This document shows, one piece after another, positions 26,759 through 64,000 of a stretch of DNA of 64,000 bases (the stretch's first letter is position 1; each line of letters opens with the position of its first letter). The DNA lies in the NCBI GenBank assembly GCA_031362415.1, contig JANLSK010000056.1, positions 24,814 through 88,813 on the forward strand. The letters are read 5' to 3'. Both the position numbers and the translations under genes were made by a program. This DNA is from Actinomycetes bacterium. Its GTDB lineage: Bacteria; Actinomycetota; Acidimicrobiia; IMCC26256; VFJJ01. The notes under the pieces were generated by a model that was given only the letters and a program-made list of their open reading frames with translations, made no database searches and was not told the DNA's origin.

Positions 26759-26767
26759 GTCGGCTCC

Positions 26768-35484: not shown

Positions 35485-35487
35485 GGC

Positions 35488-36018: not shown

Positions 36019-36130
36019 GGTTCGGGGCGCGAGCGACGGGGTGCCATCGCCGGGCGGCGCAGTACCAGGGCACCACGGGCACCACCCGGAGAACACAGCG
36101 ACAGCAGAACCACTCAGCAGGCGGGGGAAC

Positions 36131-36715: not shown

Positions 36716-36723
36716 GGAAGCCC

Positions 36724-38109: not shown

Positions 38110-38121
38110 GGGTCTGCAGAC

Positions 38122-44654: not shown

Positions 44655-45263
44655 GTGAGCGAAGTAGCCCAGTGGTTCGTCTTCATCGTCGCCTCGTCGG
44701 CGGCGATCGGGATGGCCGTCGGTGTCGTCACCCAGCGCAACCCGGTGCATGCCGCGCTGGCCTTGGTCGGCACGCTGTTCGCGGTGGCGGTCCTGTTCGT
44801 CATGCAGGAGGCGCACTTCCTCGCCGCGGTCCAGATCATCGTGTACGCCGGCGCCATCGTGGTGCTGTTCCTGTTCGTCATCATGCTGCTCGGCATCGAC
44901 AAGCACGAGGTGCTCGACGAATCGCTCCCGCTCCAGCGGATCATCGCGGGCGTCGTGGGTGTCGGATCGTTGGTGGTGGGCGCCATCATGCTGATCAAGG
45001 CCGACGCCGCGCCGCAGACGCCCACCGACTCCCCGTCGAGCATCTCGGGCACCGGCCTGGGCAACGTCGAGCACATCGGCCGCAGCCTCTTCAGCGACTA
45101 CCTGTGGGCCTTCGAGATCACGTCGGTGCTTCTGGTCATAGCGGTCGTCGGCGCGGTGGTGCTGGTACGGCGACGATCGGGCCCGGCGTCGGCCGACACC
45201 GACAACGACACCGGGACCGGCAATGGGGCCGAGTCCGGCGCGCCGGGGAAGGCCCGGGCGTGA
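44655..45263 (+). CDS. nuoJ: NADH-quinone oxidoreductase subunit J
   Basis: Five-TM pattern with [21 protein letters not shown] and [15 protein letters not shown]. Confidence 0.9.
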
Positions 45264-45568
45264 CGGCCATCGACCCCAACCTCTTTCTGGCCGTCGCCGC
45301 GATCATCTTCGTGATCGGGGCGGTCGGCCTGCTGACCCGCAAGAACGCACTGGTGATGTTCATGTGCGTCGAGCTGATGCTCAACGCCGTCAACCTCACC
45401 TTCGTCACGTTCTCCCGTGAGCTCGACGACATCGGCGGTCAGGTCACCGTGTTCTTCACGATGGTCGTCGCTGCCGCGGAGGTCTGTGTGGGCCTGGCCA
45501 TCATCGTGGCGATCTTCCGGCGCCGGCGCGGTGCCACCGCCGACGACCTCAACATCATGAAAGGCTGA
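45260..45568 (+). CDS. nuoK: NADH-quinone oxidoreductase subunit K
   Basis: About 100 aa with three TM helices. The motifs are [12 protein letters not shown] and [11 protein letters not shown]. The start overlaps the nuoJ stop (GTGA). Confidence 0.9.
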
Positions 45569-45578
45569 GGAGGAACCG

Positions 45579-47627: not shown

Positions 47628-47632
47628 CGACG

Positions 47633-49318: not shown

Positions 49319-50874
49319 TGCCGTTCGTCCGTCCGGCCGTCGACTGGTACGCCATCGCCCCCGAGATCGCCATCTTCGGTGCTGGCCTGCTCATCGTGGC
49401 CTTCGCCGCGGTCACGCACCGAGCCCCGATCCTGGCCCGTCTGCACCTGTGGGTTGCGCTCACCGGCGTTGCCGTTGCCGGCGTCTTCATCTTCCCGATC
49501 TGGCACCGTTGGAACGAGGGGCTCGAAGCCGTCGATCGCGTTCCCAGCTACACCACGCTCAACGGAGCGGTCTCGATCGACGGGGCCTCGATCTTCCTCA
49601 AGGCCGTGGTGCTCATTGCCGTGTTGTTCGGGATCCTCATCGCGTGGAGCTACCTGAAACGCGAGAACCTCGAGAAGCCCGAGTACCTGGCGCTGTTGTT
49701 GTTCTCGGCCTCGGGCATGCTCATGATGACCTCGGCCAACGATCTGGTCGTGGTGTTCGTGTCGCTCGAGATCCTGTCGATCTCGTTGTACGTGCTGGCG
49801 GCGTTCCAACGGGCCAACGCCACGTCGCAGGAAGCGGCGATCAAGTACTTCGTGCTGGGAGCGTTCTCGTCGGCGATCTTCCTGTACGGCGTGGCGCTCG
49901 TCTACGGGGCCACGGGCAGCACGAACCTGGGCCAGATCTCCCGGGTCATCAACGACAGCCAGATCCAAGGCTCCACCTACGACGACAAGCTGATCTTGGT
50001 CGGCATCATGTTGTTGTTGGTGGGTCTGGGGTTCAAGGTCGCCGCCGTGCCGTTCCACATGTGGACGCCCGACGTGTACCAGGGCGCTCCCACACCGGTC
50101 ACCGGGTTCATGGCCGCCGGAGCCAAGATCGCCGCGTTCGCCGCGCTGCTGCGGGCGTTCTCGGTGAGCTTCCAGGGCAACCAGGACGACTGGCGGCCCG
50201 CCCTGTGGGCCGTCACCGTGCTCACCCTCGTCGTCGCCAGCGCCGTTGCCCTGGTGCAGAGCAACGTGAAGCGGATGCTCGCCTACTCGTCGATCAGCCA
50301 CGCCGGGTACATGCTCGTCGGCGTGCAGGTGGCCACGGTCGAGGGCACGGCGGCGGTCCTCACGTACCTGTTCGTCTACACGTTCCTCACGCTCGGCACC
50401 TTCACCGTGGTCACTCTCATGGCCCGCCAGGGCGACGAGGGCCACGAGCTCTCCGACTACCGGGGTCTCGCCGTCCGCGAGCCGTTGCTGGCGAAACTGC
50501 TGACCCTGTTTCTCCTGGCCCAGGCGGGCATCCCGCTCACGTCGGGGTTCATCGCCAAGCTCAAGGTCTTCCAGGCCGCCGTCGACCGCGAGGTCTACTC
50601 CCTGGCCGTCATCGGCATGCTGGCCTCGGTGGTGGCGGCGTTCGTCTACCTGCGCCTCATCGTCACCATGTTCACCGGTCCCGGGATCGACGAGCACCCC
50701 GAGCACGCAGATGTCGCCCACGGCGGTGGCACCGCGGTGGCGATCGCCGCGCCCCCTCGGGTGCGGGTCGACCTGGCCAGCGGCATCGTGCTGGCCCTCG
50801 CCGCCGCCGTCACCATCTTCGTCGGCATCCTCCCCAACGAGCTCCTCGAGTTCGCCAAGCGCTCGGTCTTCTAG
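49315..50874 (+). CDS. nuoN: NADH-quinone oxidoreductase subunit N
   Basis: Motifs are LEILSISLYVLA and KVAAVPFHMWTPDVYQGAPTPVTGFM. The start overlaps the nuoM stop (ATGA). Confidence 0.95.
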   Translation: MMPFVRPAVDWYAIAPEIAIFGAGLLIVAFAAVTHRAPILARLHLWVALTGVAVAGVFIFPIWHRWNEGLEAVDRVPSYTTLNGAVSIDGASIFLKAVVLIAVLFGILIAWSYLKRENLEKPEYLALLLFSASGMLMMTSANDLVVVFVSLEILSISLYVLAAFQRANATSQEAAIKYFVLGAFSSAIFLYGVALVYGATGSTNLGQISRVINDSQIQGSTYDDKLILVGIMLLLVGLGFKVAAVPFHMWTPDVYQGAPTPVTGFMAAGAKIAAFAALLRAFSVSFQGNQDDWRPALWAVTVLTLVVASAVALVQSNVKRMLAYSSISHAGYMLVGVQVATVEGTAAVLTYLFVYTFLTLGTFTVVTLMARQGDEGHELSDYRGLAVREPLLAKLLTLFLLAQAGIPLTSGFIAKLKVFQAAVDREVYSLAVIGMLASVVAAFVYLRLIVTMFTGPGIDEHPEHADVAHGGGTAVAIAAPPRVRVDLASGIVLALAAAVTIFVGILPNELLEFAKRSVF

Positions 50875-50920
50875 GCGGCGCGTCGCTGGCTCGGCGAGGT
50901 CTGGCTCCGAACACCCGGCC

Positions 50921-50967
50921 AGCACCTGTCGCTCAACCGCGAGGGTTGCCGTTCAGCGACAGGTGCT
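50921..50967. terminator. Hairpin downstream of nuoN (candidate operon terminator)
   Basis: agcacctgtcgctcaac ... gttcagcgacaggtgct forms a 17-bp stem with one mismatch and a 13-nt loop. It starts 47 bp after the nuoN stop and has no U-tract. Confidence 0.5.
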
Positions 50968-51022
50968 CGACGGGTGGAGCGCCTCGGGCGCCGCGGCTCA
51001 GCGCGAGCTGAGCCCCCCATCT

Positions 51023-51184
51023 TCACCCGTGATCGTCGGGGCCGCGGTCGACCCCCGCCTCGCCGAGGTTGGCCTCATGGGCGGCGCTGTGAGCTTCAGG
51101 GCGGCCCCTGAGGAACAAGGCAGCAGCCACGAGGACGATGCCGATGCCGAGGTACAGCAGGTCCTGGTGATCGCGTGCCGGCAT
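51023..51184 (-). CDS. Possible 53-aa single-TM protein downstream of the patatin gene
   Basis: ATG to TGA ORF (MPARDHQDLLYLGIGIVLVAAALFLRGRPEAHSAAHEANLGEAGVDRGPDDHG) with high GC3. It lies 24 bp after the patatin stop and has no obvious SD. Confidence 0.3.
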   Translation of the reverse strand: MPARDHQDLLYLGIGIVLVAAALFLRGRPEAHSAAHEANLGEAGVDRGPDDHG

Positions 51185-51208
51185 GGGCGACGAGCGCGCC
51201 GCGCAAGC

Positions 51209-52228
51209 TCAGCGGGGACGGCGGATGCGGGACGGGCGACGCTCGTCGGTCTCCACGGGATGCTCGTTGAGGAAGCGGGCTGCGTCGCGGTAGGCGGTCT
51301 CGCAGATGGCGTCGGCGCCGGAGAAGTCGAAGATCGTCCGGTCGTCGTCGGGGTGGGGGAGTTCGATCACCTCGATGTGCGCCGGGGCCGAGCCCCGCTC
51401 GATCTCCCAACGCTGCTTGCGGGCGATGGCGAAGGCCTGCAGGAGCGCGTCGCCGGGATGGCGGAGCTCGCGGGGCTTGATGACGCCCGAGACGTTGAGC
51501 ACGTACACCCGCACCGGCCCCGCTGGCCCCACCGAGGAGCCCCGACCCGGTGCCGCCGAATGGGCGAAGGCGTGGGCGACGGGGACGTTGTTCACCACGG
51601 CGCCGTCGATGAACCGACGACCGCAGTACTCGACGGGCGGCAGGAGCCCGGGGAGCGCCGTGGAGGCCATGAGCGCCGGCCGCAACAGACCGGCGGCGAA
51701 CACGGCCTCGTCGCCCGTCGCCAGATCGGTGGCGACGACCCGGAGCGGGACGGTGAGGTCGTGGAACGAGCCGGACGCGAAGCGCTCGACGAGCGCGGCG
51801 ATCCCGGTGTCGCGAATCACGTGGGTATCCTTGCGGACCACCTTCCACGTGCGCGACCACCGTCCACCGGGGAAGATGTCCTCGGCAGTGAGCGTCGACC
51901 AGACCTCGGCCAGGCGCTCGACGCTGGCCAGGGACGGGTCGGCAGCCAGGGCCGAGCCGTTGAGCGCACCGACCGAGGTCCCCACGATCACATCGGGCAC
52001 GATCTCGCGTTCGAGCAGCGCCCGGAGCATGCCGACCTGGGCGACGCCGTGGTTTCCACCGCCCGACATGACGAACGCCACCGTGGGTTGCCCGGCCATC
52101 CGGCGCAGGCGGGCCTGGTCAGCTCGATGCCGCAGCCGTCTGAACGCCAGGGTGTGCATCGTGGAACGGTCCTCCGCGCGCATCGCGCGATCACGCTTGT
52201 CGTACTGCATGGGTTCCTCGGTGAACAT
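51209..52228 (-). CDS. Patatin-like phospholipase
   Basis: The oxyanion motif is SGGGNHG, the nucleophile elbow is GTSVGA and the Asp motif is DGAVVNNVP. The start is uncertain (ATG 52210, 52228 or 52279). Confidence 0.85.
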   Translation of the reverse strand: MFTEEPMQYDKRDRAMRAEDRSTMHTLAFRRLRHRADQARLRRMAGQPTVAFVMSGGGNHGVAQVGMLRALLEREIVPDVIVGTSVGALNGSALAADPSLASVERLAEVWSTLTAEDIFPGGRWSRTWKVVRKDTHVIRDTGIAALVERFASGSFHDLTVPLRVVATDLATGDEAVFAAGLLRPALMASTALPGLLPPVEYCGRRFIDGAVVNNVPVAHAFAHSAAPGRGSSVGPAGPVRVYVLNVSGVIKPRELRHPGDALLQAFAIARKQRWEIERGSAPAHIEVIELPHPDDDRTIFDFSGADAICETAYRDAARFLNEHPVETDERRPSRIRRPR

Positions 52229-52355
52229 GTCGGCCCCCCGGTACGAGGGGCAAGGGGCGGGGGCACGGTGTTTGTTCATGATGACGGAATATCGGTGGAA
52301 CGGGGGGTCGGGCGCCATCGGGGTTCCGCGTTCGGACCCCCGTCGGTTGCCCGTC

Positions 52356-52373
52356 TCGTGAAGGCGTTCACGT
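52356..52373. promoter_or_regulatory. Candidate Rex operator in the patatin/nuoA2 divergent region
   Basis: TCGTGAAGGCGTTCACGT contains a perfect GTGAA-N4-TTCAC palindrome. It is followed immediately by TATACT (52374-52379), a -10-like hexamer facing nuoA2. Confidence 0.5.
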
Positions 52374-52585
52374 ATACTCGGCCGGCGTTGGCGAGGCACG
52401 TGGGGGTAGCCGAGCCGGGAGGTGGTCGTCCCAGGATTCGCCCGGTGAGGCGGTCGGGGCCCATCTCCCGGATCACTGTGTTCTTGCCCATAAGCGCACT
52501 GTTTCACGCCATCTGTGGCGGTCGAGCGGGAGTCGGAGGGCATCGTGATCGGAGGGCCGTGGCGATCCGGGCACTGACGGGGTCG

Positions 52586-52951
52586 GTGTACACCGACCAC
52601 ACGCAGGCGTACTTTGCCGTGTTCGTGTTCGTCCTCGCGGCACTGGGCATGGTTGGCGCCATGCTCGGTCTCGGACGCCTGATCCGACCGACGCGCCCTC
52701 AGGGCCAGAAGTACATCTCGTACGAGTCGGGAGCCGACCCGATCGGCGGATTCGGCCAGATGCACGTGCGGTACTACATCTACGCGCTGTTGTTCGTGAT
52801 CTTCGACGTCGAGGCGGTGTTCATCTTCCCCTGGGCCGTCGAGCTCGAGGCTCTTGGTGCATTCGGCCTGGTGGAGATGCTCATCTTCGTGGGCATCCTC
52901 GTGTTCGGCCTGGCCTACGCCTGGCGCAAGGGAGTGCTCCGATGGGCCTGA
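52586..52951 (+). CDS. nuoA: Complex-I-like subunit A, second copy
   Basis: Three TM helices with the motifs YESGADP and [11 protein letters not shown]. The start is uncertain (GTG 52586 or GTG 52559). Confidence 0.8.
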
Positions 52952-53469
52952 TCGAGTCGGGCCTGCTCCAGAAGAAGCCGCTCAAACCGGTCTCGTGGCT
53001 CCTCAACTACAGCCGCAAGTACTCCCTCTGGACCTTCCAGTGGGGCCTGGCCTGCTGCGCGATCGAGATGGGCGCCGCGCTCGCCGGTCCCCGCTACGAT
53101 GTGATGCGCTTGGGCGTCATCCCCTTCCCCGCCAGCCCCCGTCAAGCCGACCTGGTGGTGGTCTCGGGGACGGTCACCGACAAGATGGCCCCGTCGGTGC
53201 TGCGGCTCTACGAGCAGATGCCCGACCCCAAGTACGTGATCTCCATGGGCTCGTGCGCCAACTGCGGCGGCCCCTACTGGGACTCGTACTCGGTCACCAA
53301 GGGAATCGACCAGATCATCCCGGTCGACGTCTACGTTCCCGGATGCCCGCCGAGGCCCGAGGCGCTGATGGAAGCGATCGTGATCCTCCAGCAACGCATC
53401 CAGAACGAGGGTGTCGGTAACGACGAGCTCCGCCAGCGGTGGCGGGGAGAACCCATCCTGGTCGAGTAG
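52942..53469 (+). CDS. nuoB: Complex-I-like subunit B, second copy
   Basis: All N2 ligand cysteines are present in [18 protein letters not shown] and PGCPPRPE. Confidence 0.95.
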
Positions 53470-53561
53470 GCGAGACGGTCCGTAGGCGGTACCCGCCGGG
53501 CAGTGGCGGGCGGCGTGTCACAGCTGCTTCACAGAAGCTCCAGGTTCCCGGGGGACTCCAG

Positions 53562-54251
53562 GTGGTAGACGAGCAGACGGCCGACGAGGCCGCGACAACC
53601 GAGGGTTCCACGAGCGTGGCCACGATCGACGCCGCGGCCACCGCCGTCGGGGAGCTGCGCGAGCGCGTTGTCGCCGATCTGGGATCGGCCGTGGTGGCCC
53701 ACGAGGTCAACCACGGGGTCGTCACGGTGCGCGTCAGCACCGAGTCGTGGCGGCGAACCGCCGAGATCGTCCGCTCGAAGCTCGGCTTCAACTACCTCTC
53801 GTTCATCTCCGGCATCGACTGGATGCCCGCACCCAAGGTGGGCGGCGAGGAAGCATCGGGCGACACGTCGACGCCGGCTCAGCCCATGGACCAGACCTAC
53901 GGGGTGTGCGGCTCGGCCGGGCGCTTCCAGGTCTTCGCCGCCGTCATCTCGCTGTCGAAGAAGACGACGCTGGTGCTCAAGACCGATGTCTCCGAGACCG
54001 AGCCGATCGTGGCGTCATGGGTCCCCGTCTACCCGGGCGCCGACTGGCACGAGCGCGAGACGTGGGAGATGTACGGGTTCCGCTTCGACGGCCATCCGGG
54101 GCTGCGTCACCTCTACCTGCCCGGAGAGTTCGAGGGGTTCCCGCTGCGCAAGGACTTCCCGCTGCTGGCCCGTGAGGTCAAGCCCTGGCCGGGCCTGGTC
54201 GACGTCGAGCCGATGCCGGGCGTCGCCGACGGCGACGAGGCTGAGGAGTGA
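53562..54251 (+). CDS. nuoC: Complex-I-like subunit C, second copy
   Basis: Motifs are ERETWEMYGFRFDGHPGL and FPLRKDF. GTG 53562 follows an SD GGGGGA; the ORF opens at 53439. Confidence 0.85.
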   Translation: MVDEQTADEAATTEGSTSVATIDAAATAVGELRERVVADLGSAVVAHEVNHGVVTVRVSTESWRRTAEIVRSKLGFNYLSFISGIDWMPAPKVGGEEASGDTSTPAQPMDQTYGVCGSAGRFQVFAAVISLSKKTTLVLKTDVSETEPIVASWVPVYPGADWHERETWEMYGFRFDGHPGLRHLYLPGEFEGFPLRKDFPLLAREVKPWPGLVDVEPMPGVADGDEAEE

Positions 54252-54255
54252 GCAC

Positions 54256-55443
54256 GTGACGACCACCGAGATTCCCGGATCGCCCGGCTTCGAGATCGAC
54301 CCCCGGGCGTTGACCCCCCTGGCCGATCAGCGCCTCGACGTCGAGCTCCAGTCCGAGGACATGGTCCTCAACATCGGGCCCCAGCACCCAGCGACGCACG
54401 GGACGCTGCGCGTCGTCGTGAAGCTCGACGGCGAACGCGTCGTGTCGGCCGACCCGGTCATCGGCTACATGCACCGCGGCTACGAGAAGCTCACCGAGTA
54501 CCGCACCTACCCCCAGGTGACGACCCTCATCAACCGCATCGACTGGTTGTCGTCGTTCGCCAACGAGGTGCCGTTCATCCACGCCGCCGAGCGCATCATG
54601 GGCGTCGAGGCCCCGCCCCGGGCCGAATGGATCCGCACCGCGCTCACCGAGCTCTCGCGCATCGCCACCTTCATCCTCTTCCTCGGCGAGATGGGACTCC
54701 AGGTCGGAGCCATCACCCCGGCGTTCTACGGCTTCCGTGACCGCGAGCACGTCCTCAACCTCATCGAGGCCGTCACCGGCGGGCGCTTCCACCCCAACTT
54801 CAACCGCATCGGCGGCATCAAGGACGACCTGCCTGCGGGCTGGATCAACGAGACCCGCCGGGTCATGGGCCTCATGCTCGACTCGTGCGACCAGTTCGAG
54901 GATCTGGTGGCGGGCAACGAGATCTTCCAGGCCCGCACCCGGGGCTGCGGCATCATCCCCGCCGACGTGGGCGCCGCCTACGGGGTCTCGGGTTCGAACC
55001 TGCGGGCCTCGGGCGTCGACTGGGACCTGCGCCGTGACGGCCAGCCCTACCTGGCGTACCGCGAGCTCGACTGGAAGGTGTTCACCCATCCCGACGGCGA
55101 CACCTTCGCCCGCTACTGGGTGCGGCTGCAGGAGACCCGCGAAGCGATCCGCATGGTGTTGCAGATTCTCGACGGCCTCCCGGCGGGACCGGTCATGGCC
55201 AAGGTCCCCCGCATCATCAAGGTGCCGGCCGGCGAGGCCTGGGTGAACACCGAGAACCCGCTCGGCGAGATGGGCTACTACGTCATCTCGAAGGGGGCCA
55301 CGGGGCCGTTCCGGGTGAAGATCCGCACGGCGTCGTTCAGCAACGTCTCGATCCTGCCCTGGTTGCTCAAGGGCGTGTACGTTCCCGACATCGTGACCAT
55401 CCTCGCCGGGCTCTACTTCATCCTCGGAGACATCGACCGATGA
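54256..55443 (+). CDS. nuoD: Complex-I-like subunit D, second copy (HRG motif; Trp at the quinone-Tyr position)
   Basis: Motifs are NIGPQHPATHGTLR, IGYMHRGYEKLTEYRTY and NRIDWLS. GTG 54256 follows an SD GAGGAG. Confidence 0.9.
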   Translation: MTTTEIPGSPGFEIDPRALTPLADQRLDVELQSEDMVLNIGPQHPATHGTLRVVVKLDGERVVSADPVIGYMHRGYEKLTEYRTYPQVTTLINRIDWLSSFANEVPFIHAAERIMGVEAPPRAEWIRTALTELSRIATFILFLGEMGLQVGAITPAFYGFRDREHVLNLIEAVTGGRFHPNFNRIGGIKDDLPAGWINETRRVMGLMLDSCDQFEDLVAGNEIFQARTRGCGIIPADVGAAYGVSGSNLRASGVDWDLRRDGQPYLAYRELDWKVFTHPDGDTFARYWVRLQETREAIRMVLQILDGLPAGPVMAKVPRIIKVPAGEAWVNTENPLGEMGYYVISKGATGPFRVKIRTASFSNVSILPWLLKGVYVPDIVTILAGLYFILGDIDR

Positions 55444-55452
55444 GCTGCTCTG

Positions 55453-55518
55453 GTGCCGCCTCCAAGCACCTTCGGTGCGTCGGTGGCAAATTCGGGACCT
55501 CGCTCCGCTCGGCGGAAC
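55453..55518. repeat. Intergenic motif copy A (nuoD2-nuoH2 spacer)
   Basis: GTGCCGCCTCCAAG, then the hairpin GCACC-TTC-GGTGC, then a spacer, then GGGACCTCGCTCCGCTCGGCGGAAC. It is paralogous to 63184-63252. Confidence 0.75.
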
Positions 55519-55552
55519 GTCAACACCCAACCGCACGACTCGTTGCGAGAGG

Positions 55553-56614
55553 GTGCTGACCTTGGTTGACACGCTCGCGATTGGTTCCCACGTCCTCGCG
55601 GTCGACTTGGCCTGGGGATGGATCCTGGCCATCAAGACGGCCGTCGTCTTGAGCATCATCCCGTTCGGCGCGCTGCTGCTCGGCTACGTCTTCTTGCTCA
55701 AGATGATGAGCCACATGCAGAGCCGACTCGGGCCCATGGACCCGGGCGGGTTCCACGGCTGGTTCCAGCTCATCGGTGACGGCATCAAGTTCCTCCAGAA
55801 GGAGGACATCACCCCCGAGGGCGCCGACCGCCGCGTGTTCGCCATGGCGCCGGCGGTCATCCTCGTCTCCACGTTCCTCGTGTACATCGTGATCCCCGTC
55901 GGGCCCCGACTGATCGTGCGCGACCTCGACGTGGGCATCTTCTTCGCCCTGGCCGTGTCGTCGCTCTCGGTCATCGGCGTGCTCATGGCCGGCTGGGCCT
56001 CGGCCAACAAGTACGCACTCATCGGCGCCTTGCGGGCCGCCGGTCAGCTCATCGCCTACGAGCTCCCTCTGGTGCTGGCCACCGTCGGTGTCGTCATCCA
56101 GGCCGGCACCATGAGCCTCCAGGGCATCGTGCACGCCCAGCAGAACGGTGAGATCTTCGGCTGGGGCGGCATCGGCAACCCGTTCATCCTCACCCAGATC
56201 GTGGGCTTCCTCCTCTTCCTCACCGCGGCCCAGGCCGAGCTCACCCAGACGCCCTTCGACATGCCGGTCGCCGAGTCCGAGATCGTCGGCGGCTACTACG
56301 TGGAGTACACGGGCTTTCGTTTCCTGTTCTTCTTCATGGGCGAGTTCGGGACGGCCTTCGCCTTCGCCGGCATCGCCGCCACGCTGTTCCTCGGCGGCTG
56401 GTCGATCCCCTGGGTGGACGGGACCGCCGCCGACGTGCTGGGCCCGATCGTCATGCTCACCAAGGTGATGCTCGTGGCGTTCCTCATCTTCTGGGTGCGC
56501 TTCACCTATCCCCGGTTCCGTGAAGACCAGCTCCAGTCGATCGCGTGGAAGTACCTCATTCCGCTCTCGCTCGTGAACATTGTCGTCACCGGCATCTTGA
56601 AGGTGGCCGTCTGA
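55553..56614 (+). CDS. nuoH: Complex-I-like subunit H, second copy
   Basis: Motifs are [18 protein letters not shown] and [20 protein letters not shown]. The GTG 55553 start is tentative. Confidence 0.9.
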
Positions 56615-57108
56615 TGCCGAAGTTCCCCAAGCCCAAGCTCCCCGGCGTCATCAGCGGTCTGGGCATCACGTTCCGCACGATGCTCAAGCCGGCGGTGACC
56701 GTCCAGTACCCGCACGAGAAGGAAGAGCCCGTCACCCGGGCTCGAGGCGTCATCGCCCTCAAGGAAGAGAACTGCACGGCGTGCATGCTGTGCGGGCGAT
56801 CCTGCCCCGACTGGTGCATCTACATCGAGGGCCACAAGGAGAAGCGGCCGCCGCGCCGGGCCGGGGGCAAGCCCCGCACGGTCAACATCCTCGACCGCTT
56901 CGACATCGACTACGCGCTGTGCATGTACTGCGGGATCTGCGTCGAGGTGTGCCCGTTCGACGCCCTCTTCTGGACGCCGGAATTCGAGTACTCCGAGAAC
57001 CGCATCGCCGATCTCCTCCACGACAAGGACCGGCTGGGCGAGTGGATGGCCACCGTCCCCACCCCGCCGCCCCTCGAAGTCGGTGCCCTCGTGAAGGGGA
57101 AAAAGTAG
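56614..57108 (+). CDS. nuoI: Complex-I-like subunit I, second copy
   Basis: Cluster motifs are [12 protein letters not shown] and [12 protein letters not shown]. The start shares one nucleotide with the nuoH2 stop (TGATG). Confidence 0.95.
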
Positions 57109-57602
57109 TGGGCCCCGAGAACGTCGCCTTCGCCGTGATCGCCGCGTCCATGGTCTTCTCGGCCATTCGCGTGGTCACCACTCGCAACATCGTGCACGCC
57201 GCGCTGTACCTCGTGATCGTGCTGGCCGGGATCGCCGCGCAGTACATCCTCCTGGCTTCCGAGTTCCTGGCCTGGGTCCAGGTCCTCATCTACATCGGTG
57301 CGGTGCTGGTGCTGTTCCTGTTCGGGATCATGCTCACCAAGGCTCCCATGCGCGGCGACAACGACCTCGACAACGACCAGCGCTGGCCGGCGGCCATCGC
57401 GTCGTTGTTCCTCGCCGGGGTGCTCGGCACGATCCTCGTCGACGGCTACGGCGATGTCGAGATCGCCGAGCCCGAGCAGATCGTGCGCACCGGCGACCTG
57501 GGGCGCACCATTTTCCACGACTGGGTCATCCCCTTCGAGGTGGTCTCCATGCTCTTGCTGGGTGCGCTCATCGGCGCCATCGTGATCGCCCGGAGGGACT
57601 GA
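57108..57602 (+). CDS. nuoJ: Complex-I-like subunit J, second copy
   Basis: Motifs are WVQVLIYIGAVLVLFLFGIML and FEVVSMLLLGALIGA. The GTG shares one nucleotide with the nuoI2 stop (TAGTG). Confidence 0.9.
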   Translation: MGPENVAFAVIAASMVFSAIRVVTTRNIVHAALYLVIVLAGIAAQYILLASEFLAWVQVLIYIGAVLVLFLFGIMLTKAPMRGDNDLDNDQRWPAAIASLFLAGVLGTILVDGYGDVEIAEPEQIVRTGDLGRTIFHDWVIPFEVVSMLLLGALIGAIVIARRD

Positions 57603-57608
57603 CGCACG

Positions 57609-57911
57609 ATGGCGCTCAACCAGTTCCTCCTCCTCAGCCTGTTCCTGTTCTGCACCGGCGTCTACGGCGCGTTGGTCAGACGCAGCGGTGTGCTCGTGCT
57701 CATGAGCATCGAGCTCATGCTCAACGCCGCCAACTTGAACCTGGTGGCCTTCTCGGCCTTCTACAAGGGCGAGCTCTCCGGACAGGTCTTCGCGCTGTTC
57801 GTGATCGCCATCGCCGCCGCCGAGGTGGGCGTGGGTCTGGCCATCGTCCTGCTCCTGTATCGCAACCTGTCGTCGGCCGATCTCGATCGTGCCGACTCGA
57901 TGAAGGGCTGA
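57609..57911 (+). CDS. nuoK: Complex-I-like subunit K, second copy
   Basis: 100 aa, with [12 protein letters not shown] and [11 protein letters not shown]. Confidence 0.9.
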
Positions 57912-57921
57912 GGGAACTCGA

Positions 57922-60063
57922 ATGGCGCATTGGGCCTTCTTGATCCCGCTCGTCCCTGCGGTCTCGTACTTCGTGATCTTGCTGTTCGGCAAGCGCTTCG
58001 GGGAACGATGCTCGTACATCGGCATCGCGGCACTGAGCGCGGCGTGGGTCATGGCCGCGATCAACGTCTACCAGTGGATCGACCGGCGCGAGATCGTGCG
58101 CGAGTCGATCGAATGGTTCGAGTGGGGTGGCGGCTCGATCCGGGTCGGCACCCACGTCGACGGCCTGGCCACGATGATGCTCTTCGTCGTCACCTCGGTG
58201 TCGCTGCTCGTGCACGTCTACTCGCTCGAGTACCTACGCGGCGATCGGCGCTACACGCACTACTACGCGGCGCTGTCGTTGTTCTCGGCCTCGATGCTGA
58301 TGCTCGTCATCGCCGACAACACGCTGGCGCTGCTCACGTCGTGGGAGCTCGTCGGCCTGTGCTCGTTCATGCTCATCAGCCATTGGTGGGAGGACAAGGA
58401 CAACTCCAACGCCGGCCTCAAGGCGTTCATCACCAACCGGGTGGGCGACGTCGGGTTGATCGTCGGGATCATCATCCTGTACTTCGTCGCCGGGAAGACC
58501 TTCGACATCGACACCATCAACTCGGCCGCGCTGTCGGGCTCCATCCGCCACGGCACACTCCTCATCGCGGCGGTGTGCCTGCTGGCCGCGGTGTGCTCGA
58601 AGTCGGGTCAGGTACCGTTGCACATCTGGCTCCCCGATGCCATGGCCGGACCCACGCCGGTCTCCGCGCTCATCCACGCCGCCACCATGGTCGTGGCTGG
58701 CGTGTACATGGTGGCCCGGCTCTACGGCGTGTTCTTCGCCGGCTTATCGATCGACGAGGGGGGCATGAACCTCCTGGCGCTCGTCGGTGGCGTCACCATG
58801 GTCATCGGTGCGTCGATGGCCTTCGTGCAGAACGACATCAAGCGAGTGCTCGCGTACTCCACCATCTCCCAGCTCGGATACATGGTCGCGGCGTTGGGCG
58901 TCGGAGCGTGGACGGGCGGCGTCTTCCATCTCTTCACCCACGCATTCTTCAAGGCCTGTCTGTTCCTTGGAGCCGGTTCGCTCTCGCACGCCTGCCACCA
59001 CACGTTCGACATGCGTGAGATGGGTGGGCTGCGCAAGAAGATGCCCACCACGTTCCTCACGTTCACGATCGGCACGCTGGCGCTGGCTGGCGTACCGCCG
59101 CTCGCCGGCTTCTGGTCGAAGGACGAGATCCTCAACGGGGCCCGCGCCAACGACTTCCCGATCATCATGGTGCTGGGTTTCGTGGCCGCGATCATGACGG
59201 CTGCCTACATGGGCCGGGCGCTGTATCTCATCTTTTTCGGCCAGTACCGCGGCCACGCCCATCCTCACGAGTCGCCCAAGGTGATGATGATCCCGGTGTC
59301 GATCCTGGCCGGGCTTGCCGTCGTGGTCGGGCTCTTGAACGCTCCCTTCGCCGACTACCGGTTTGGGCAGTGGGTGAAGTTCGAGGTCGAGGTCGAGAAT
59401 CGGTACGGCGCCGCGGGCGAAGTCGCGGCGGCCGCTGAGGCTGAAGGTGAGCACGCGGCCGAGGGCGAGGTGGTGGCTGAGGCTGAGGGTGAGCACGCGG
59501 CCGAGGCTGAGCACGTGATCGTGCACTCCATCACCGAGATCAAGGAGTTGGCTCCCGGAGAGGTTGTCCTCTTCGAGCCCGAGGAGCACGAGTTCAACAT
59601 CGGCGTCGCCGGGAGCTCCGTGGCCATCGGCCTCGTCGGCTTGCTCATCGCGACCTGGATCTACCTCCTCCGCAAGGCGCCCAAGAACCTGCTGCTCGTC
59701 AATCCGTTCCGGGCGCTGTACACGCTCCTCCTCCAGAAGTACTACCTCGACAAGCTGGCCGTCGACGGAATCGCCAAGGGCACCGCCGGTCCCGTGGCCG
59801 ACGGCAGCTACTGGGTCAACCAGAAGATCATCGACGGCGCGGTCAACGGGGTCGGGGTCACGACCAAGAAGTACCTGGCGCCCTTCGCCTACGAGCAGCT
59901 CGACCAGTTCGTCGTCGATGGCCTGTACAACGGTCTGGGCGAGACCACCAAAGGCCTCGGGAGCGCGTTCCGCAAGCTGCAGAACGGTCGCATCCAGCGC
60001 TACGGCCTCTGGTTGTTCTTCGCTGTGGCCATCCTGGGCCTCGTCGTGGCGCTGCTCGCGTGA
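57922..60063 (+). CDS. nuoL: Complex-I-like subunit L, second copy
   Basis: Motifs are WELVGLCSFMLI and KSGQVPLHIWLPDAMAGPTPVSALIHAATMV. It has an acidic insert containing a 42-bp tandem duplication. Confidence 0.95.
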   Translation: MAHWAFLIPLVPAVSYFVILLFGKRFGERCSYIGIAALSAAWVMAAINVYQWIDRREIVRESIEWFEWGGGSIRVGTHVDGLATMMLFVVTSVSLLVHVYSLEYLRGDRRYTHYYAALSLFSASMLMLVIADNTLALLTSWELVGLCSFMLISHWWEDKDNSNAGLKAFITNRVGDVGLIVGIIILYFVAGKTFDIDTINSAALSGSIRHGTLLIAAVCLLAAVCSKSGQVPLHIWLPDAMAGPTPVSALIHAATMVVAGVYMVARLYGVFFAGLSIDEGGMNLLALVGGVTMVIGASMAFVQNDIKRVLAYSTISQLGYMVAALGVGAWTGGVFHLFTHAFFKACLFLGAGSLSHACHHTFDMREMGGLRKKMPTTFLTFTIGTLALAGVPPLAGFWSKDEILNGARANDFPIIMVLGFVAAIMTAAYMGRALYLIFFGQYRGHAHPHESPKVMMIPVSILAGLAVVVGLLNAPFADYRFGQWVKFEVEVENRYGAAGEVAAAAEAEGEHAAEGEVVAEAEGEHAAEAEHVIVHSITEIKELAPGEVVLFEPEEHEFNIGVAGSSVAIGLVGLLIATWIYLLRKAPKNLLLVNPFRALYTLLLQKYYLDKLAVDGIAKGTAGPVADGSYWVNQKIIDGAVNGVGVTTKKYLAPFAYEQLDQFVVDGLYNGLGETTKGLGSAFRKLQNGRIQRYGLWLFFAVAILGLVVALLA
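59434..59517. repeat. In-frame 42-bp tandem duplication inside nuoL2
   Basis: Units at 59434-59475 and 59476-59517 encode AEAEGEHAAEGEVV and AEAEGEHAAEAEHV, with few mismatches. Confidence 0.9.
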
Positions 60064-60124
60064 ACCGATCCTCGAACGTCGCCCGTCCCACACCTGAACG
60101 CATGAACCGAGAAGGATTCCCGGA

Positions 60125-61684
60125 ATGAACTGGTTCGACGACTGGGGTATCACGCTCACGGTGTTCATCCCCATCGTGGGAGCGATCATCCTCCTGCTCA
60201 TCCCGAAGAGCGAGGAGGAGACGATCAAGGGTGTCGCCCTGCTCACCTCGCTCGTCACCATGGGCTTCGCCATCGGACTCATGGCTGAGTTCGACTACGA
60301 CGACACGGCGAGGCTGCAGTTCGAGGTGAACAAGTCGTGGATCGACGTCATCAACAGCCGCTATCACGTGGCCCTCGATGGCATCAGTCTTCCTCTGGTT
60401 TTGCTCTCGGCGCTCATTATCGTGCTGTGCATCGTCTATTCGTGGAACCACTTTCCTGAACCCCACAACCCCAAGGCGCTCTTGGCGTTGATGCTCGTGC
60501 TCGAGACGGGCATGATCGGTACCTTTGTGGCCCAGGACCTCATCCTCTTCTTCATCTTCTTCGAGGTCGTTCTGCTCCCGATGTACTTCATGATCGGGGT
60601 GTGGGGCGGTAAGAACCGCGAGTACGCCTCGATCAAGTTCTTCCTCTTCACCCTGTTCGGTTCGGCGCTCATGCTCTTGAGCTTCCTGGCCGTGTACTTC
60701 AGCTCGAAGGATCCCGTCACCGGACAGCACACCTTCGACATCGTCACGCTGTCGACCGCGGGCGTGCTCGACGTCTCGAAGACCGCGGCGGTCGTCATGT
60801 TCGGCGGCATGTTCCTGGGCTTCGGGATCAAGGTCCCGATGTTCCCGTTCCACACCTGGCTCCCCGACGCGCACACCGAGGCGCCCACCGTCGGCTCGGT
60901 GATCCTGGCCGCAGTGCTCCTGAAGCTCGGGACCTACGGCTTCATCCGCATCGCCTTGCCGATCCTGCCCGAAGGGGCTCAGGAGTGGGCGCCCTACATC
61001 GGGCTCCTCGCCGTGATCGGCATCATCTACGGGGCGCTCAACTGTCTGGCCCAACGAGACGTGAAACGGCTCATCGCCTTCTCGTCGGTGGCGCACATGG
61101 GTTTCGTGATGCTCGGCATCGCCACGCTCACGACCGCCGGCATCAATGCCGCCGTGTTCGGCATGGTGGCCCACGGTCTCATCACCGGCTTGTTGTTCTT
61201 CGTAGCCGGCTCGATGCAAGAGCGCTACCACACCCGGGAGATGTCGAGGCTGGGAGGCTTGTTGATCTCCGCTCCCAAGATGGGCTGGATCCTGGGCTTC
61301 ACGGCCATGGCCTCGCTCGGACTCCCCGGCCTCGCCGGCTTCTGGGGCGAGTTTCCGGCGATCCTGGCGGCGTACGAGCCGCTGAGCGTGCTCTCGGAGG
61401 AGACCTTCCGAACGTACATGGTGATCGCCGCGGTCGGCACCGTGCTCGCCGCGGCCTACCTGCTCGTCATGTACCAACGGGTCGCCATGGGCGAGGTGCC
61501 CGAGGAGTTCAGGGACGAGCACATCCACGACGTGCACGGGCCTGAATGGATCGCCTGGGCCCCCATGCTGATCCTCATCCTGGCCCTCGGGATCTATCCG
61601 AAGCTGCTCTTCGGTATCACCGACGACGCGGTCAAGCACGTGACCGAGGGCATCGCCACCGCGCTCAACGCGACCGCGAAGTAG
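60125..61684 (+). CDS. nuoM: Complex-I-like subunit M, second copy
   Basis: Motifs are FFEVVLLPMYFMI and KVPMFPFHTWLPDAHTEAPTVGSVILAAVLLK. Confidence 0.95.
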   Translation: MNWFDDWGITLTVFIPIVGAIILLLIPKSEEETIKGVALLTSLVTMGFAIGLMAEFDYDDTARLQFEVNKSWIDVINSRYHVALDGISLPLVLLSALIIVLCIVYSWNHFPEPHNPKALLALMLVLETGMIGTFVAQDLILFFIFFEVVLLPMYFMIGVWGGKNREYASIKFFLFTLFGSALMLLSFLAVYFSSKDPVTGQHTFDIVTLSTAGVLDVSKTAAVVMFGGMFLGFGIKVPMFPFHTWLPDAHTEAPTVGSVILAAVLLKLGTYGFIRIALPILPEGAQEWAPYIGLLAVIGIIYGALNCLAQRDVKRLIAFSSVAHMGFVMLGIATLTTAGINAAVFGMVAHGLITGLLFFVAGSMQERYHTREMSRLGGLLISAPKMGWILGFTAMASLGLPGLAGFWGEFPAILAAYEPLSVLSEETFRTYMVIAAVGTVLAAAYLLVMYQRVAMGEVPEEFRDEHIHDVHGPEWIAWAPMLILILALGIYPKLLFGITDDAVKHVTEGIATALNATAK

Positions 61685-61690
61685 CGATCG

Positions 61691-63184
61691 GTGCTGAGCG
61701 TGGGCATCCCGGCACCCGACATCGACTACCACGCGCTCGCGCCCGAGATCGTGATCGTGGGCACGATCCTCGTGATCCTGCTCGTCGACTTGATCTTCGG
61801 CGATCGGGCGCGGGCCCAGGCGTCGCGGATCGCGGCGTTCGGCGTGCTTGGGGCGCTCATCCCCGTCCTCACGCTGGGGGCCGACGGCGGCGACGTCAGC
61901 ATGTTCAACGGCACGTTCGTCGTCGACAACTTCGCCCTCATCATGAAGGCGTTCTTTCTCGTCGTCACGTACCTGGTGATCCTGGTGTCGGTCGATGCCA
62001 TGTCCGAGAGCGACGTCGCCGAGCCCGAGTACTACGTCATGACCCTCACTGCGCTCCTCGGCATGATGGTCATGGGATCGAGCCGCGATCTCATCACGAT
62101 CTTCGTCGCCCTCGAGACGATCTCCATCCCCACCTACCTGCTGGCCGGATGGAAGAAGCACGAGCACAAGTCGAACGAGGCGATGCTCAAGTACTTCATC
62201 TTCGGCGTGTTGTCGTCGGCCGTGATGCTCTACGGCATGTCGCTCGTGTACGGCGCCACCGGTTCCACGTTGTTGTCGGTCATCTCCGAGGGCCCCCGCA
62301 CGAACCTCGGCCAGGACCTGGGCACGGTGATGAACGTGGGGATCTTCCTCACGCTGGTCGGCTTCGCCTTCAAGGTGAGCGCCGTACCGTTCCACTTCTG
62401 GACGCCCGACACCTACGAGGGCGCGCCAACGCCGGTCACGGCCTTCCTCTCGGTGGCATCGAAGGCCGGCGGCATGGTCGCCATCTTCTCGCTGATCTAC
62501 GCCGGTTTCTACGGCCGTACCGATGCCTGGCAGCCCATCATCTGGGTCATGGCGGCGCTGTCGATGACCGTGGGCAACATGATCGCGACGAAGCAGACGA
62601 ACATCGTCCGCATGCTCGCCTATTCGTCGATCGCCCAGGCCGGTTTCATGCTCGTGCCCTTTGCCGTTGCGCCCGAGGACGGGGCGAACTCATATCAGAG
62701 CGCCTTCTCGGCCACGGTCATCTACATGCTCATCTATGGCGCCATGAACATCGGGGCCTTCGCCACGCTCATGGCCATAGCCCGGCGTACCCGATCCGGG
62801 GAGATCACGAGCTTCTCGGGGCTTTTCAGCTACGCACCAACCCTGGCCATGATGATGTCGATCTTCCTCATGTCGCTCGCCGGTGTCCCGATCTTCGCCG
62901 GCTGGTTCGCCAAGTACGTCATGTTCCAGGCCACGATCGAGGGCGGCACCGGGATGGCCTATGCGCTCGGCATCGTCGCCGCGGTCAACTCGGTGATCGC
63001 GTTCTTCTACTACGGCAACGTCGTCCGGCTGATGTTCTTCCGGGAGCCCACCGTCGAGGACCGCTCCCCGATCCGGGTACCCACCGCGCTGGGCACGGCG
63101 ATCGCCCTGTGCGCCATCACGACCGTGGCCGTGGGGATCTACCCCGAGCTCTTCGCCCGCCTGGGCGAGCGCACACCGTTCTAG
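61691..63184 (+). CDS. nuoN: Complex-I-like subunit N, second copy
   Basis: Motifs are LETISIPTYLLA and KVSAVPFHFWTPDTYEGAPTPVTAFL. It has a GTG start. Confidence 0.95.
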   Translation: MLSVGIPAPDIDYHALAPEIVIVGTILVILLVDLIFGDRARAQASRIAAFGVLGALIPVLTLGADGGDVSMFNGTFVVDNFALIMKAFFLVVTYLVILVSVDAMSESDVAEPEYYVMTLTALLGMMVMGSSRDLITIFVALETISIPTYLLAGWKKHEHKSNEAMLKYFIFGVLSSAVMLYGMSLVYGATGSTLLSVISEGPRTNLGQDLGTVMNVGIFLTLVGFAFKVSAVPFHFWTPDTYEGAPTPVTAFLSVASKAGGMVAIFSLIYAGFYGRTDAWQPIIWVMAALSMTVGNMIATKQTNIVRMLAYSSIAQAGFMLVPFAVAPEDGANSYQSAFSATVIYMLIYGAMNIGAFATLMAIARRTRSGEITSFSGLFSYAPTLAMMMSIFLMSLAGVPIFAGWFAKYVMFQATIEGGTGMAYALGIVAAVNSVIAFFYYGNVVRLMFFREPTVEDRSPIRVPTALGTAIALCAITTVAVGIYPELFARLGERTPF

Positions 63185-63252
63185 TGCCGGCTCCAAGGCG
63201 CCTGGCGGCGCCGTCGCCGGCGCCGTCGGGACCTCGCTGCGCTCGGCGGAAC
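63184..63252. repeat. Intergenic motif copy B (nuoN2-midA spacer)
   Basis: GTGCCGGCTCCAAG, then the hairpin GGCGCC-TGGC-GGCGCC, then a spacer, then GGGACCTCGCTGCGCTCGGCGGAAC. An inverted partial copy (CGGCGAGCGGAGCG) follows at about 63279-63292. Confidence 0.75.
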
Positions 63253-63293
63253 CCCTGCACCGTGCCGGGTGGCGGTCGGCGAGCGGAGCGCAT

Positions 63294-64000
63294 GTGATTG
63301 CTGACCAGCTCCGAGAGCTGATCGAGCGGGTCGGCCCGCTCAGCTTCGAGACGTTCATGGATGCCGCGCTCTACGACGAGGGCGGCTTCTTCGCATCAGG
63401 CGGCGGGGCAGGCCGCGCTGGCGCCGACTTCATCACCAGCGTCGAGACGGGCAGCCTGTTCGGCGCGCTCGTGGCCCGTGAGATCGATCGGTGGTGGGAG
63501 CGCCTGGGCTGGCCCGAACCGTTCGTGGTCCTCGACGTGGGCGCCGGACGGGGCCAGCTGGCGCGTGACGTGCTGCGCGCCAGCCCGGCCTGTGCTGCGC
63601 AGTTGCGGTACGTGCTCGTCGAGCGATCGGCCATGCTCAGGGAGCTCCACCGTGACCACCTCCCCTGGGAGCCACCCGAGGACGTGCTGGGACCCACGGC
63701 CCCGGACGCAGACGAGGACGGAGACGCAGACGAAGACGAAGACGGAGACGACGCGGCCCCGGGTGGAGCCCCGGCCCGCCATCGTGGTCCCCTGGTCACC
63801 TCGTTGGCCGACCTGCCGGCGACCCCGATCACCGGTCTGATCATCGCCAACGAGCTGCTCGACAATCTTCCGTTCGTGCTCGCCGAGCGCACGTCGACGG
63901 GCTGGTCGGAGGTTCGGGTGGGCTTCGACGGTCTTCGCTTCGCCGAGTGTCTCGTGCCGGCCGGGCCGCCGCTGGTCGACCTGATCGGTCGACTCCTGCC
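63294..64000 (+). CDS. MidA/NDUFAF7-family (DUF185) SAM-dependent methyltransferase, 3' end outside window
   Basis: The frame is open from GTG 63294 to the window end and is not in the ORF track because no stop is reached. Motifs are LSFETFMDAALYDEGGFF, ADFITSVETGSLFG, LDVGAGRGQLARDVL and IIANELLDNLPF. It has an Asp/Glu/Gly-rich insert. Confidence 0.75.
   Translation, partial: MIADQLRELIERVGPLSFETFMDAALYDEGGFFASGGGAGRAGADFITSVETGSLFGALVAREIDRWWERLGWPEPFVVLDVGAGRGQLARDVLRASPACAAQLRYVLVERSAMLRELHRDHLPWEPPEDVLGPTAPDADEDGDADEDEDGDDAAPGGAPARHRGPLVTSLADLPATPITGLIIANELLDNLPFVLAERTSTGWSEVRVGFDGLRFAECLVPAGPPLVDLIGRLL

Follow-up and report, generated by a model that had tools for sequence, protein, structure and literature searches.

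An 11-subunit complex I paralogue with an apparently remodelled acceptor pocket, encoded beside a canonical nuo operon in Acidimicrobiia

Eleven-subunit relatives of respiratory complex I, which lack the NADH-oxidising subunits NuoE, NuoF and NuoG (hereafter EFG-less), are widespread and also occur in Actinobacteria (PMC3144371). In those EFG-less relatives that have been characterised, ferredoxin, flavodoxin or F420H2 serves as the electron donor (PMC4453560, PMC3144371), and no donor is known for EFG-less 11-subunit enzymes of the kind described here (PMC3144371, PMC11238625). We analysed a 64,000-nucleotide stretch of DNA (hereafter the window; ~69% G+C) from an Actinomycetes bacterium of the class Acidimicrobiia (assembly GCA_031362415.1, contig JANLSK010000056.1). 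Within it, an 11-gene EFG-less operon, nuo2 (52586–63184, + strand), follows a canonical 14-gene nuoA–N operon with nuoE, nuoF and nuoG, nuo1 (35005–50874, + strand, delimited by open reading frames and start codons). The best explanation of nuo2, to which we assign a probability of about 0.5, is a conserved EFG-less proton pump that would carry electrons from a soluble low-potential donor to menaquinone and would be modified by a methyltransferase on Arg74 of its NuoD2 subunit.

Candidatus Actinomarinales, which belong to the same class, also carry a 14-gene nuo operon near an EFG-less nuoABCDHIJKLMN operon followed by an NDUFAF7/PF02636 gene (PMC7771536; bioRxiv 10.1101/2021.02.01.429150). 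The tandem layout is therefore already published, and the window is a new complete member from another Acidimicrobiia lineage. It comes from a high-GC soil or freshwater-type lineage, unlike Ca. Actinomarinales, and its two operons are separated by a patatin-like gene, whereas Ca. Actinomarinales have heliorhodopsin and Fe3+ ABC transporter genes there, upstream of nuoA2. Neither the residues of the acceptor site nor the paralogue to which the arginine target is specific are taken up in the published work on Ca. Actinomarinales. Streptomyces likewise has a second complex I set without the N-module beside a full nuoA–N operon (PMC3765725, PMC8388888). The sequence-only reading of this DNA had drawn that comparison. 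Such paralogues do exist, but the closest relatives of nuo2 are Acidimicrobiia and the Streptomyces set is dispersed: it has a nuoA2, B2, H2–N2 operon, no nuoC2 and a nuoD2 elsewhere, and nuoJ2 of S. ambofaciens is reported as a pseudogene (PMC3765725, PMC8388888). In the window, all 11 genes are contiguous, intact and beside nuo1. The Acidimicrobiia operon seems to be the intact, contiguous form of the dispersed Streptomyces set, a relation that seemingly has not been pointed out before.

The 11-subunit enzymes described as ancestral (Moparthi & Hägerhall 2011, PMC3144371; Desulfitobacterium hafniense, PMC11238625) have the same 11 subunits and no NiFe-ligating cysteine pairs; they have been proposed to act as platforms on which ferredoxin or another donor docks. 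The D. hafniense enzyme occurs alone (PMC11238625), whereas nuo2 coexists with a 14-gene operon. Unlike NuoD2, most of its closest representatives outside the actinobacterial clade keep Tyr87 and Asp139 of the quinone site (numbered as in Thermus thermophilus Nqo4). Cyanobacterial and chloroplast NDH-1 (PDB 6HUM, 6NBY) shares the EFG-less 11-subunit core with nuo2, and its NdhH shares with NuoD2 an arginine at the HRG position discussed below. However, NdhH keeps Tyr87 and Asp139, and NDH-1 needs the docking subunits NdhS, NdhV and NdhO plus NdhL–Q. No gene for NdhL–Q, NdhS or NdhV stands beside nuo2, either in the window or in relatives, although a genome-wide search was not possible. Archaeal Fpo/Fqo also has an EFG-less core, and some archaeal C/D fusions have, as NuoD2 does, tryptophan at the Tyr87 position. 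Fpo differs in having FpoF and FpoO, neither of which is encoded in the window, and the archaeal tryptophan cases are phylogenetically separate from nuo2.

Gene content and conservation of nuo2

Eleven + strand open reading frames between 52586 and 63184 match Pfam families in the order NuoA, B, C, D, H, I, J, K, L, M, N. The first four are nuoA2 (52586–52951; Oxidored_q4, PF00507, E 3e-34, with an FD.E motif in 71/71 orthologues), nuoB2 (52942–53469; Oxidored_q6, PF01058; 218 bits with NF005012 against a cut-off of 116), nuoC2 (53562–54251; Complex1_30kDa, PF00329, E 7e-32) and nuoD2 (54256–55443; Complex1_49kDa, PF00346). They are followed by nuoH2 (55553–56614; NADHdh, PF00146, E 6e-98), nuoI2 (56614–57108; two Fer4 matches), nuoJ2 (57108–57602; Oxidored_q3, PF00499, E 3e-40) and nuoK2 (57609–57911; Oxidored_q2, PF00420). 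The three Proton_antipo_M (PF00361) genes come last: nuoL2 (57922–60063; 713 aa, also PF00662, and 610 bits with NF005141 against a cut-off of 556), nuoM2 (60125–61684) and nuoN2 (61691–63184). The NCBIfam models for NuoB, NuoD, NuoH and NuoL all score above their curated cut-offs. Neither Pfam nor NCBIfam detects a NuoE, F or G homologue between D2 and H2 or elsewhere in the nuo2 cluster, and the sole nuoE, F and G copies within the window are those of nuo1. The eleven-gene content without E, F and G read from the letters alone is thus borne out, and the distance of 1.7 kb between the operons is confirmed as a gap of 1711 bp from the end of nuoN1 (50874) to the start of nuoA2. This gap contains a patatin-like phospholipase gene (51209 to ~52228, − strand; PF01734, E 1.8e-29), which is convergent with nuo1 and divergent from nuo2. 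The start of nuoC2 is ambiguous, with GTG at 53562 likelier than GTG at 53439; the NuoC2 protein has an acidic N-terminal extension and an insertion of ~25 aa that is kept in relatives.

A one-genome-per-species scan returned 592 relatives, and the window proteins were mapped by tblastn onto the loci of the best 80 (73–85% identity). Nearly all of these 80 are Acidimicrobiia or unclassified Actinomycetota metagenome-assembled genomes, including Microthrix, Ilumatobacteraceae, Ca. Poriferisocius and Ca. Aldehydirespirator; a handful are titled as other taxa, and none is Streptomyces. All 80 loci repeat the order A2-B2-C2-D2-H2-I2-J2-K2-L2-M2-N2, without exception as far as their contigs extend. 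In this class, nuo2 usually stands directly behind a canonical nuoA–N operon, with nuoH1–N1 immediately upstream in ~50 of the 80 loci. The nuoN1–nuoA2 gap is only 112–190 bp in 12 loci; a patatin gene lies between the operons in ~20 relatives, and elsewhere, without it, they are 112–760 bp apart. About 14 loci, such as those of Poriferisocius, have no nuo1 within 10 kb of nuo2.

The nuo2 proteins are conserved equally to or more than their nuo1 counterparts, with median identities across relatives of 73% for H2 against 56% for H1 and 69% for M2 against 56% for M1. Only three internal stops occur among ~750 orthologous nuo2 gene matches. This pattern indicates purifying selection on nuo2. Degeneration, which the sequence-only reading had considered, is ruled out by the near-absence of internal stops and by identities at least as high as those of nuo1; no decay was seen in the relatives. 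Fragmented genes in two loci (L081 and L084) are likelier to reflect assembly frameshift errors, as the other loci are almost free of stops. Within the window, nuo1 and nuo2 proteins share 29–54% amino-acid identity, which indicates ancient paralogy and not a recent duplication with loss of EFG. NuoD1 and NuoB1 match Mycobacterium smegmatis complex I best, and NuoD1 (36712–38109) has an N-terminal extension of ~70 aa relative to both NuoD2 and Nqo4. NuoI1 (43908–44654) ends in a His/Asp-rich tail of ~50 aa. Judged from these comparisons, nuo2 is a functional, anciently diverged 11-subunit complex I paralogue that is intact across the class Acidimicrobiia.

The energy-converting machinery of nuo2 is canonical. 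We counted residues in alignment columns over 55–80 orthologues, depending on the subunit. In NuoB2 the four N2 ligands (C38, C39, C105 and C135) do not vary, and NuoI2 carries its two CxxCxxCxxxCP motifs in 76/76 orthologues; the sequence-only reading was right that the cluster motifs and the antiporter-like subunits are intact. The membrane arm is equally complete: seven acidic channel residues of NuoH2 are invariant in 78/78 orthologues and E35 and E72 of NuoK2 in 72/72, and the Glu of transmembrane helix 5, the Lys of helix 7, the His/Lys of helix 8 and the Lys/Glu/Asp of helix 12 are invariant or nearly so in L2, M2 and N2. In particular, E142, K227, H336, H340, K344, K400 and D401 of NuoL2 are invariant, and E147, K236 and E409 of NuoM2 and E142, K228, K258 and K408 of NuoN2 are conserved. 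The same cofactor and pump residues are found in the nuo1 paralogues. The membrane arm and the iron–sulfur chain (N6a, N6b, N2) are therefore those of a canonical complex I. NuoD2 has the N-terminal motif GPQHPATHG and the C-terminus ILGDIDR and lacks NiFe-ligating cysteine pairs, so that nuo2 does not encode a membrane-bound hydrogenase; NiFe hydrogenase large-subunit models score negligibly on NuoD2.

The acceptor pocket and the arginine near N2

Aligned residues show clade-specific remodelling of the nuo2 pocket, both around N2 and at the acceptor site. NuoD2 was aligned to T. thermophilus Nqo4 and to cyanobacterial and chloroplast NdhH. It retains His38 of Nqo4 (His48 in NuoD2) together with His34, Arg84 and Asp86, and its beta1-beta2 loop and C-terminal GDIDR are canonical. 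Of the quinone-site triad His38/Tyr87/Asp139, however, only the histidine is kept. The quinone-headgroup ligand Tyr87 is replaced by Trp97 (in NRIDW) in 80/80 orthologues, and Asp139, the salt-bridge partner of His38, is replaced by Gln149 in 78/80. A new acidic residue, Glu145, stands one helical turn before Gln149 and is Glu or Asp in 78/80. NuoD1 of the window is canonical at all three triad positions. NuoB2 has Pro63 (Pro in 75/75 orthologues; Arg in NuoB1) at the position of bovine PSST Arg-77, the hydroxylated arginine of the Q cavity in the motif FRASPRQ (PMC3750175). It also has an extra cysteine, Cys108, three residues past the third N2 ligand (GSCANCGG; 73/75 orthologues; Thr in NuoB1), which might be an alternative N2 ligand or tune the potential of N2.

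In a library of 50%-identity representatives, tryptophan at the Tyr87 position marks the clusters nearest to NuoD2, which are 47–57% identical to it and carry Glu in place of Asp139. Among them, the 57% identical NuoD of P0148 lies in a heliorhodopsin, Fe-ABC and 11-gene nuo context that matches the published Actinomarinales type, the only relative in which the heliorhodopsin context was seen, and another lies in tandem behind a nuo1. The window and the Actinomarinales type thus differ at the second position, with Gln at 139 and Glu at NuoD2 residue 145 in the former and Glu at 139 itself in the latter. A remoter tryptophan-type group, 36–39% identical to NuoD2, carries Ala, Gly, Ser or Arg in place of Asp139. 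It includes an orphan nuoD-like gene outside any nuo operon (P0277; locus L083, 10001–11179), which probably represents the Streptomyces nuoD2 type. This orphan type has lost the acidic residue (Ala/Gly/Ser), unlike NuoD2 with its Gln149/Glu145 pair. The orphan gene lies in an actinobacterial panC / fol / ftsH neighbourhood with a two-component system upstream. The Tyr and Asp pair is kept in 79 of the 137 representatives scored at both positions. In a neighbour-joining tree, the bacterial tryptophan-type NuoDs form one clade, which includes the Actinomarinales and orphan types and is separate from every canonical Tyr/Asp NuoD. Two fused C/D proteins of archaea (P0173 and P0200, annotated Methanofastidiosia and Methanonatronarchaeales) have Trp at Tyr87, keep Asp139 and fall outside that clade. 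Their placement suggests that the quinone tyrosine was lost convergently. The tyrosine has been called strictly conserved, and the His–Asp pair has been described as a coupling trigger (PMC8119997). Full-text literature searches gave no mention of a natural tryptophan variant, which is not proof that there is none; the clade-wide remodelling seemingly has not been pointed out before.

The tryptophan-for-tyrosine pocket would imply altered protonation chemistry at the acceptor site, where the protein would contribute a single proton donor and not two. The sequence-only reading had called nuo2 a proton-pumping quinone reductase. Intact iron–sulfur and pump residues agree with that description, but quinone reduction cannot simply be assumed with Trp, Gln and Pro in the pocket. 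The enzyme might instead not be a forward quinone reductase: it could use the proton-motive force to reduce ferredoxin or another low-potential acceptor with electrons from menaquinol, or could serve a non-quinone acceptor. The clade-wide loss of the quinone-ligating tyrosine fits this alternative, as do the Gln/Glu at the Asp139 position in complete-operon groups, its replacement by Ala/Gly/Ser/Arg in the orphan group, and the independent tryptophan of the archaeal fusions. Moreover, forward NADH oxidation would already be covered by the canonical nuo1 upstream in the ~50 tandem loci, including the window. We nevertheless consider it quite improbable, given that His48, Arg94, Asp96, the beta1-beta2 loop, the acidic residues of NuoH2 and GDIDR are all canonical, that residue 145 of NuoD2 supplies a compensating acidic group, and that no candidate alternative acceptor is evident. 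In addition, Y144W mutants studied by Tocilescu and co-workers in 2010 reportedly kept activity with short-chain quinones. In a broader form of this idea, the actinobacterial EFG-less nuo2 enzymes of the window, Actinomarinales and Streptomyces types would together be a distinct class of complex I without canonical two-proton quinone reduction, perhaps a reverse menaquinol:ferredoxin oxidoreductase or an enzyme with another acceptor. Its pocket would combine Trp for Tyr, Gln, Glu or neither for Asp, Pro for the PSST arginine and a predicted dimethylarginine near N2. Such an enzyme, driven in reverse by the proton-motive force, would supply low-potential electrons in aerobes. We regard this as distinctly unlikely.

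Several observations link the operon to a methyltransferase of the MidA/NDUFAF7 type. A Methyltransf_28 gene starts with GTG at 63294, 110 bp past nuoN2 and on the same strand, and its 5' part (63294–64000, +) runs off the window. Over 232 aa the encoded fragment shares 48% identity with a protein of ~390 aa that relatives encode after nuoN2 and that matches PF02636 (MidA/NDUFAF7 family) with E 2.3e-36. In 41 loci this gene is found within 3 kb of nuoN2 on the same strand, at a median gap of 72 bp. In humans, NDUFAF7 dimethylates NDUFS2 at Arg-85, the R of KCDPHIGLLHRGTEK; Paracoccus shows this modification as well, whereas E. coli lacks it (PMC3829151, PMC3750175), and the bovine target arginine sits in an HRGxEK motif (PMC3750175). 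Arg74 of NuoD2 (DPVIGYMHRGYEK) occupies the target position in 81/81 sequences, and the arginine is kept in 39/39 tryptophan-type NuoD representatives. Even the orphan nuoD has a PF02636 gene 5.5 kb away. NuoD1, in contrast, has Thr at this position, as does T. thermophilus, which compensates for the missing arginine with Nqo6-Arg83 (PMC8042128). NuoB1 has the equivalent of that Nqo6 arginine (AGRVS), like M. smegmatis NuoB, whereas NuoB2 has Thr77 there, as in mitochondria. These patterns make nuo1 Thermus/Mycobacterium-type and nuo2 mitochondrial/Paracoccus-type around N2. Within the window, the presumptive target arginine of the methyltransferase is present only in the nuo2 paralogue. The methyltransferase would dimethylate NuoD2-Arg74 during assembly, as NDUFAF7 does on NDUFS2 in mitochondria and Paracoccus. 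The NDUFAF7 neighbour has already been listed for Ca. Actinomarina (bioRxiv 10.1101/2021.02.01.429150), where we found no statement on the paralogue specificity of the arginine; the arginine switch that ties the methyltransferase to NuoD2 seemingly has not been pointed out before.

Possible electron donors

A soluble low-potential carrier, most likely ferredoxin, would give electrons singly to cluster N6a of NuoI2, docking on the surface left open by the absent NuoG. Electrons would then pass through N6b and N2 to menaquinone bound against His48 and Trp97, and protons would be pumped through H2/A2/J2/K2 and through L2, M2 and N2. The ferredoxin-type donor is a tentative part of this scheme, somewhat short of an even chance. 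The best solved relatives of NuoH2 are the NdhA subunits of ferredoxin-dependent NDH-1 from cyanobacteria and chloroplasts, and the PDB ranking of NuoD2 places Thermus first and NdhH second, whereas mycobacterial and mitochondrial subunits come first for NuoD1. NuoI2 has a conserved basic loop between its two clusters and a Lys-rich C-terminal tail. These rankings and basic regions are weak hints that may favour a soluble acidic carrier; the net charge of NuoI2 compared with NuoI1 gives only a weak signal, which we do not use as strong evidence.

Several points weigh against the menaquinone-reducing pump with a soluble donor. Neither the window nor the relatives have a ferredoxin gene linked to nuo2, and genes for FpoF/FrhB, flavodoxin, hydrogenase and 2-oxoacid:ferredoxin oxidoreductase are absent both from the 64-kb window and beside nuo2 in relatives. 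All sampled tandem nuo2 regions that reach far enough upstream have a full nuo1, which fits the borrowing of NuoEFG equally well. The Trp, Gln and Pro substitutions remove residues deemed essential for quinone binding and protonation, and the reduction of menaquinone is an assumption. The methylation of NuoD2-Arg74 is deduced from synteny and homology, and both the PDB bit-score rankings and the neighbour-joining tree are crude.

The sequence-only reading had left the electron donor unidentified, in agreement with earlier work (PMC3144371, PMC11238625) and with the lack of a linked donor gene. It had suggested the ferredoxin encoded at 15738–16160 as a nearby candidate. This 2x[4Fe-4S] protein turns out to be a poor specific candidate, since its gene is 36 kb away and inside a b6c-type operon, followed immediately by genes for cytochrome b6-like, subunit-IV-like, Rieske and cytochrome c proteins. 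The whole respiratory cluster (15191–19999, +) encodes a small membrane protein, the ferredoxin-like protein, the cytochrome b6-like (PF00033) and subunit-IV-like (PF00032) proteins, a Rieske protein and a dihaem cytochrome c. Its gene content is that of an unusual b6c-type complex with an associated iron–sulfur protein, to which the ferredoxin most likely belongs.

The absence of a dedicated donor gene conserved in or beside nuo2 would also be expected if the nuo2 Q-module and membrane arm docked the single NuoEFG of nuo1. The cell would then have two NADH:menaquinone oxidoreductase isozymes, which would differ in acceptor-site or pumping properties. Spero et al. (PMC4453560) noted that genomes with one nuoEFG and two sets of the other genes could make two isozymes. 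The position of nuo1 directly upstream in ~50/80 loci and the 112–190 bp nuoN1–nuoA2 gap in 12 loci, which is compatible with one transcript, also speak for such sharing. Regulation may point the same way. A candidate operator-like palindrome for Rex, a sensor of NADH/NAD+, lies 214 bp upstream of nuoA2 (52357–52372, a strand-symmetric pattern match, CGTGAAGGCGTTCACG), and there is no such site upstream of nuoA1. With at most two mismatches to TGTGAAnnnnTTCACA, the window has four Rex-like palindromes against 0.58 expected, including those at 52357–52372, 27600–27615 and 15070–15085; the sites lie upstream of nuoA2, of a rex-hemA-hemC string and of the ferredoxin/b6c cluster, and one is directly upstream of a rex-like gene (26768–27589, −). 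With at most three mismatches, a Rex-like site precedes nuoA2 in 14/69 relative loci, compared with 3.9% of background windows. The structure of the subunits argues otherwise. The Q-module paralogues that would both have to bind NuoG are only 29–54% identical, and the NuoD2 clade is deeply separate. NuoD2 lacks the ~70-aa N-terminal extension of NuoD1, and NuoI2 lacks a C-terminal region of ~85 aa present in NuoI1. Moreover, nuo2 does not adjoin nuo1 in ~14 loci (Poriferisocius type), Streptomyces has nuo1 and nuo2 at separate chromosomal sites (PMC3765725), and a convergent gene separates the operons in the window. Sharing of NuoEFG is therefore rather unlikely.

An F420H2 dehydrogenase, in which an FpoF/FrhB-like subunit encoded elsewhere would feed nuo2 as in archaeal Fpo, is very improbable. 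This function was proposed for Ca. Actinomarinales from identities of up to 35% to Methanosarcina mazei Fpo, and F420 is widespread in Actinobacteria (PMC7771536). The nuo2 subunits do match the FpoD, FpoH, FpoI and FpoL models, but their scores (341, 247, 48 and 410) are far below the respective cut-offs (600, 475, 180 and 1050) and lower than the generic Nuo scores. Furthermore, no FpoF/FrhB-like gene was found in the window or in any inspected neighbourhood, and among PDB structures NuoD2 and NuoH2 resemble subunits from Thermus and cyanobacteria more closely than any archaeal one. The pump fed by a soluble low-potential carrier remains our preferred explanation.

Other elements of the locus and biological meaning

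The spacer of 109 bp between D2 and H2 noted from the letters alone is real: it runs from the nuoD2 stop at 55443 to the nuoH2 start, a TTG at 55553 preceded by a Shine-Dalgarno-like GAGAGGG. It is filled by a GC-rich repeat of ~85 nt (copy 1, 55454–55535, +). A second copy (63185–63275, +) lies between nuoN2 and the methyltransferase gene. Both copies, delimited by alignment and nhmmer, share a near-identical 25-nt core, GGGACCTCGCTSCGCTCGGCGGAAC, with two occurrences in the window against 0 expected, and each immediately follows a stop codon (of nuoD2 and nuoN2). Most relatives have no such spacer, their D2 and H2 genes directly adjoining or overlapping. The spacer is thus not a relic of nuoEFG, given the second copy after nuoN2 and the relatives without a spacer. 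No Rfam family matches the repeat, nhmmer finds no copies in the loci of relatives, and the fold z-scores are −0.6 and −1.0, which rejects it as a structured or known RNA. The element is a lineage-specific intergenic repeat insertion, which appears not to have been described before.

For the genes around nuo2, clustering of flanking open reading frames gave many antisense artefacts in this high-GC DNA, and only same-strand clusters supported by Pfam were used. A promoter and terminator scan of 50700–52700 gave no match, which is uninformative for a high-GC actinobacterium. A haem biosynthesis string (hemL, hemB, hemC and hemA) lies downstream of rex (21158–27589, −). The gene immediately upstream of nuoA1 (33555–34901, +) encodes a geranylgeranyl-reductase-like flavoprotein (FAD-dependent type), and an IS1595-family transposase is encoded at 3383–4390.

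The donor of complex I relatives without the N-module in non-photosynthetic bacteria is a long-standing question, which this locus sharpens but does not answer. Very widespread soil and aquatic Actinobacteria keep a complete and strongly conserved 11-subunit enzyme beside a normal complex I. By replacing a tyrosine that is considered strictly conserved, the nuo2 clade provides a natural experiment on how coupling works in complex I. With a target arginine confined to nuo2 and a methyltransferase gene in the operon, these bacteria may offer a simple system for the NDUFAF7-type modification. Should the changed pocket stand for another reaction, models of respiration in these abundant bacteria would have to be revised.

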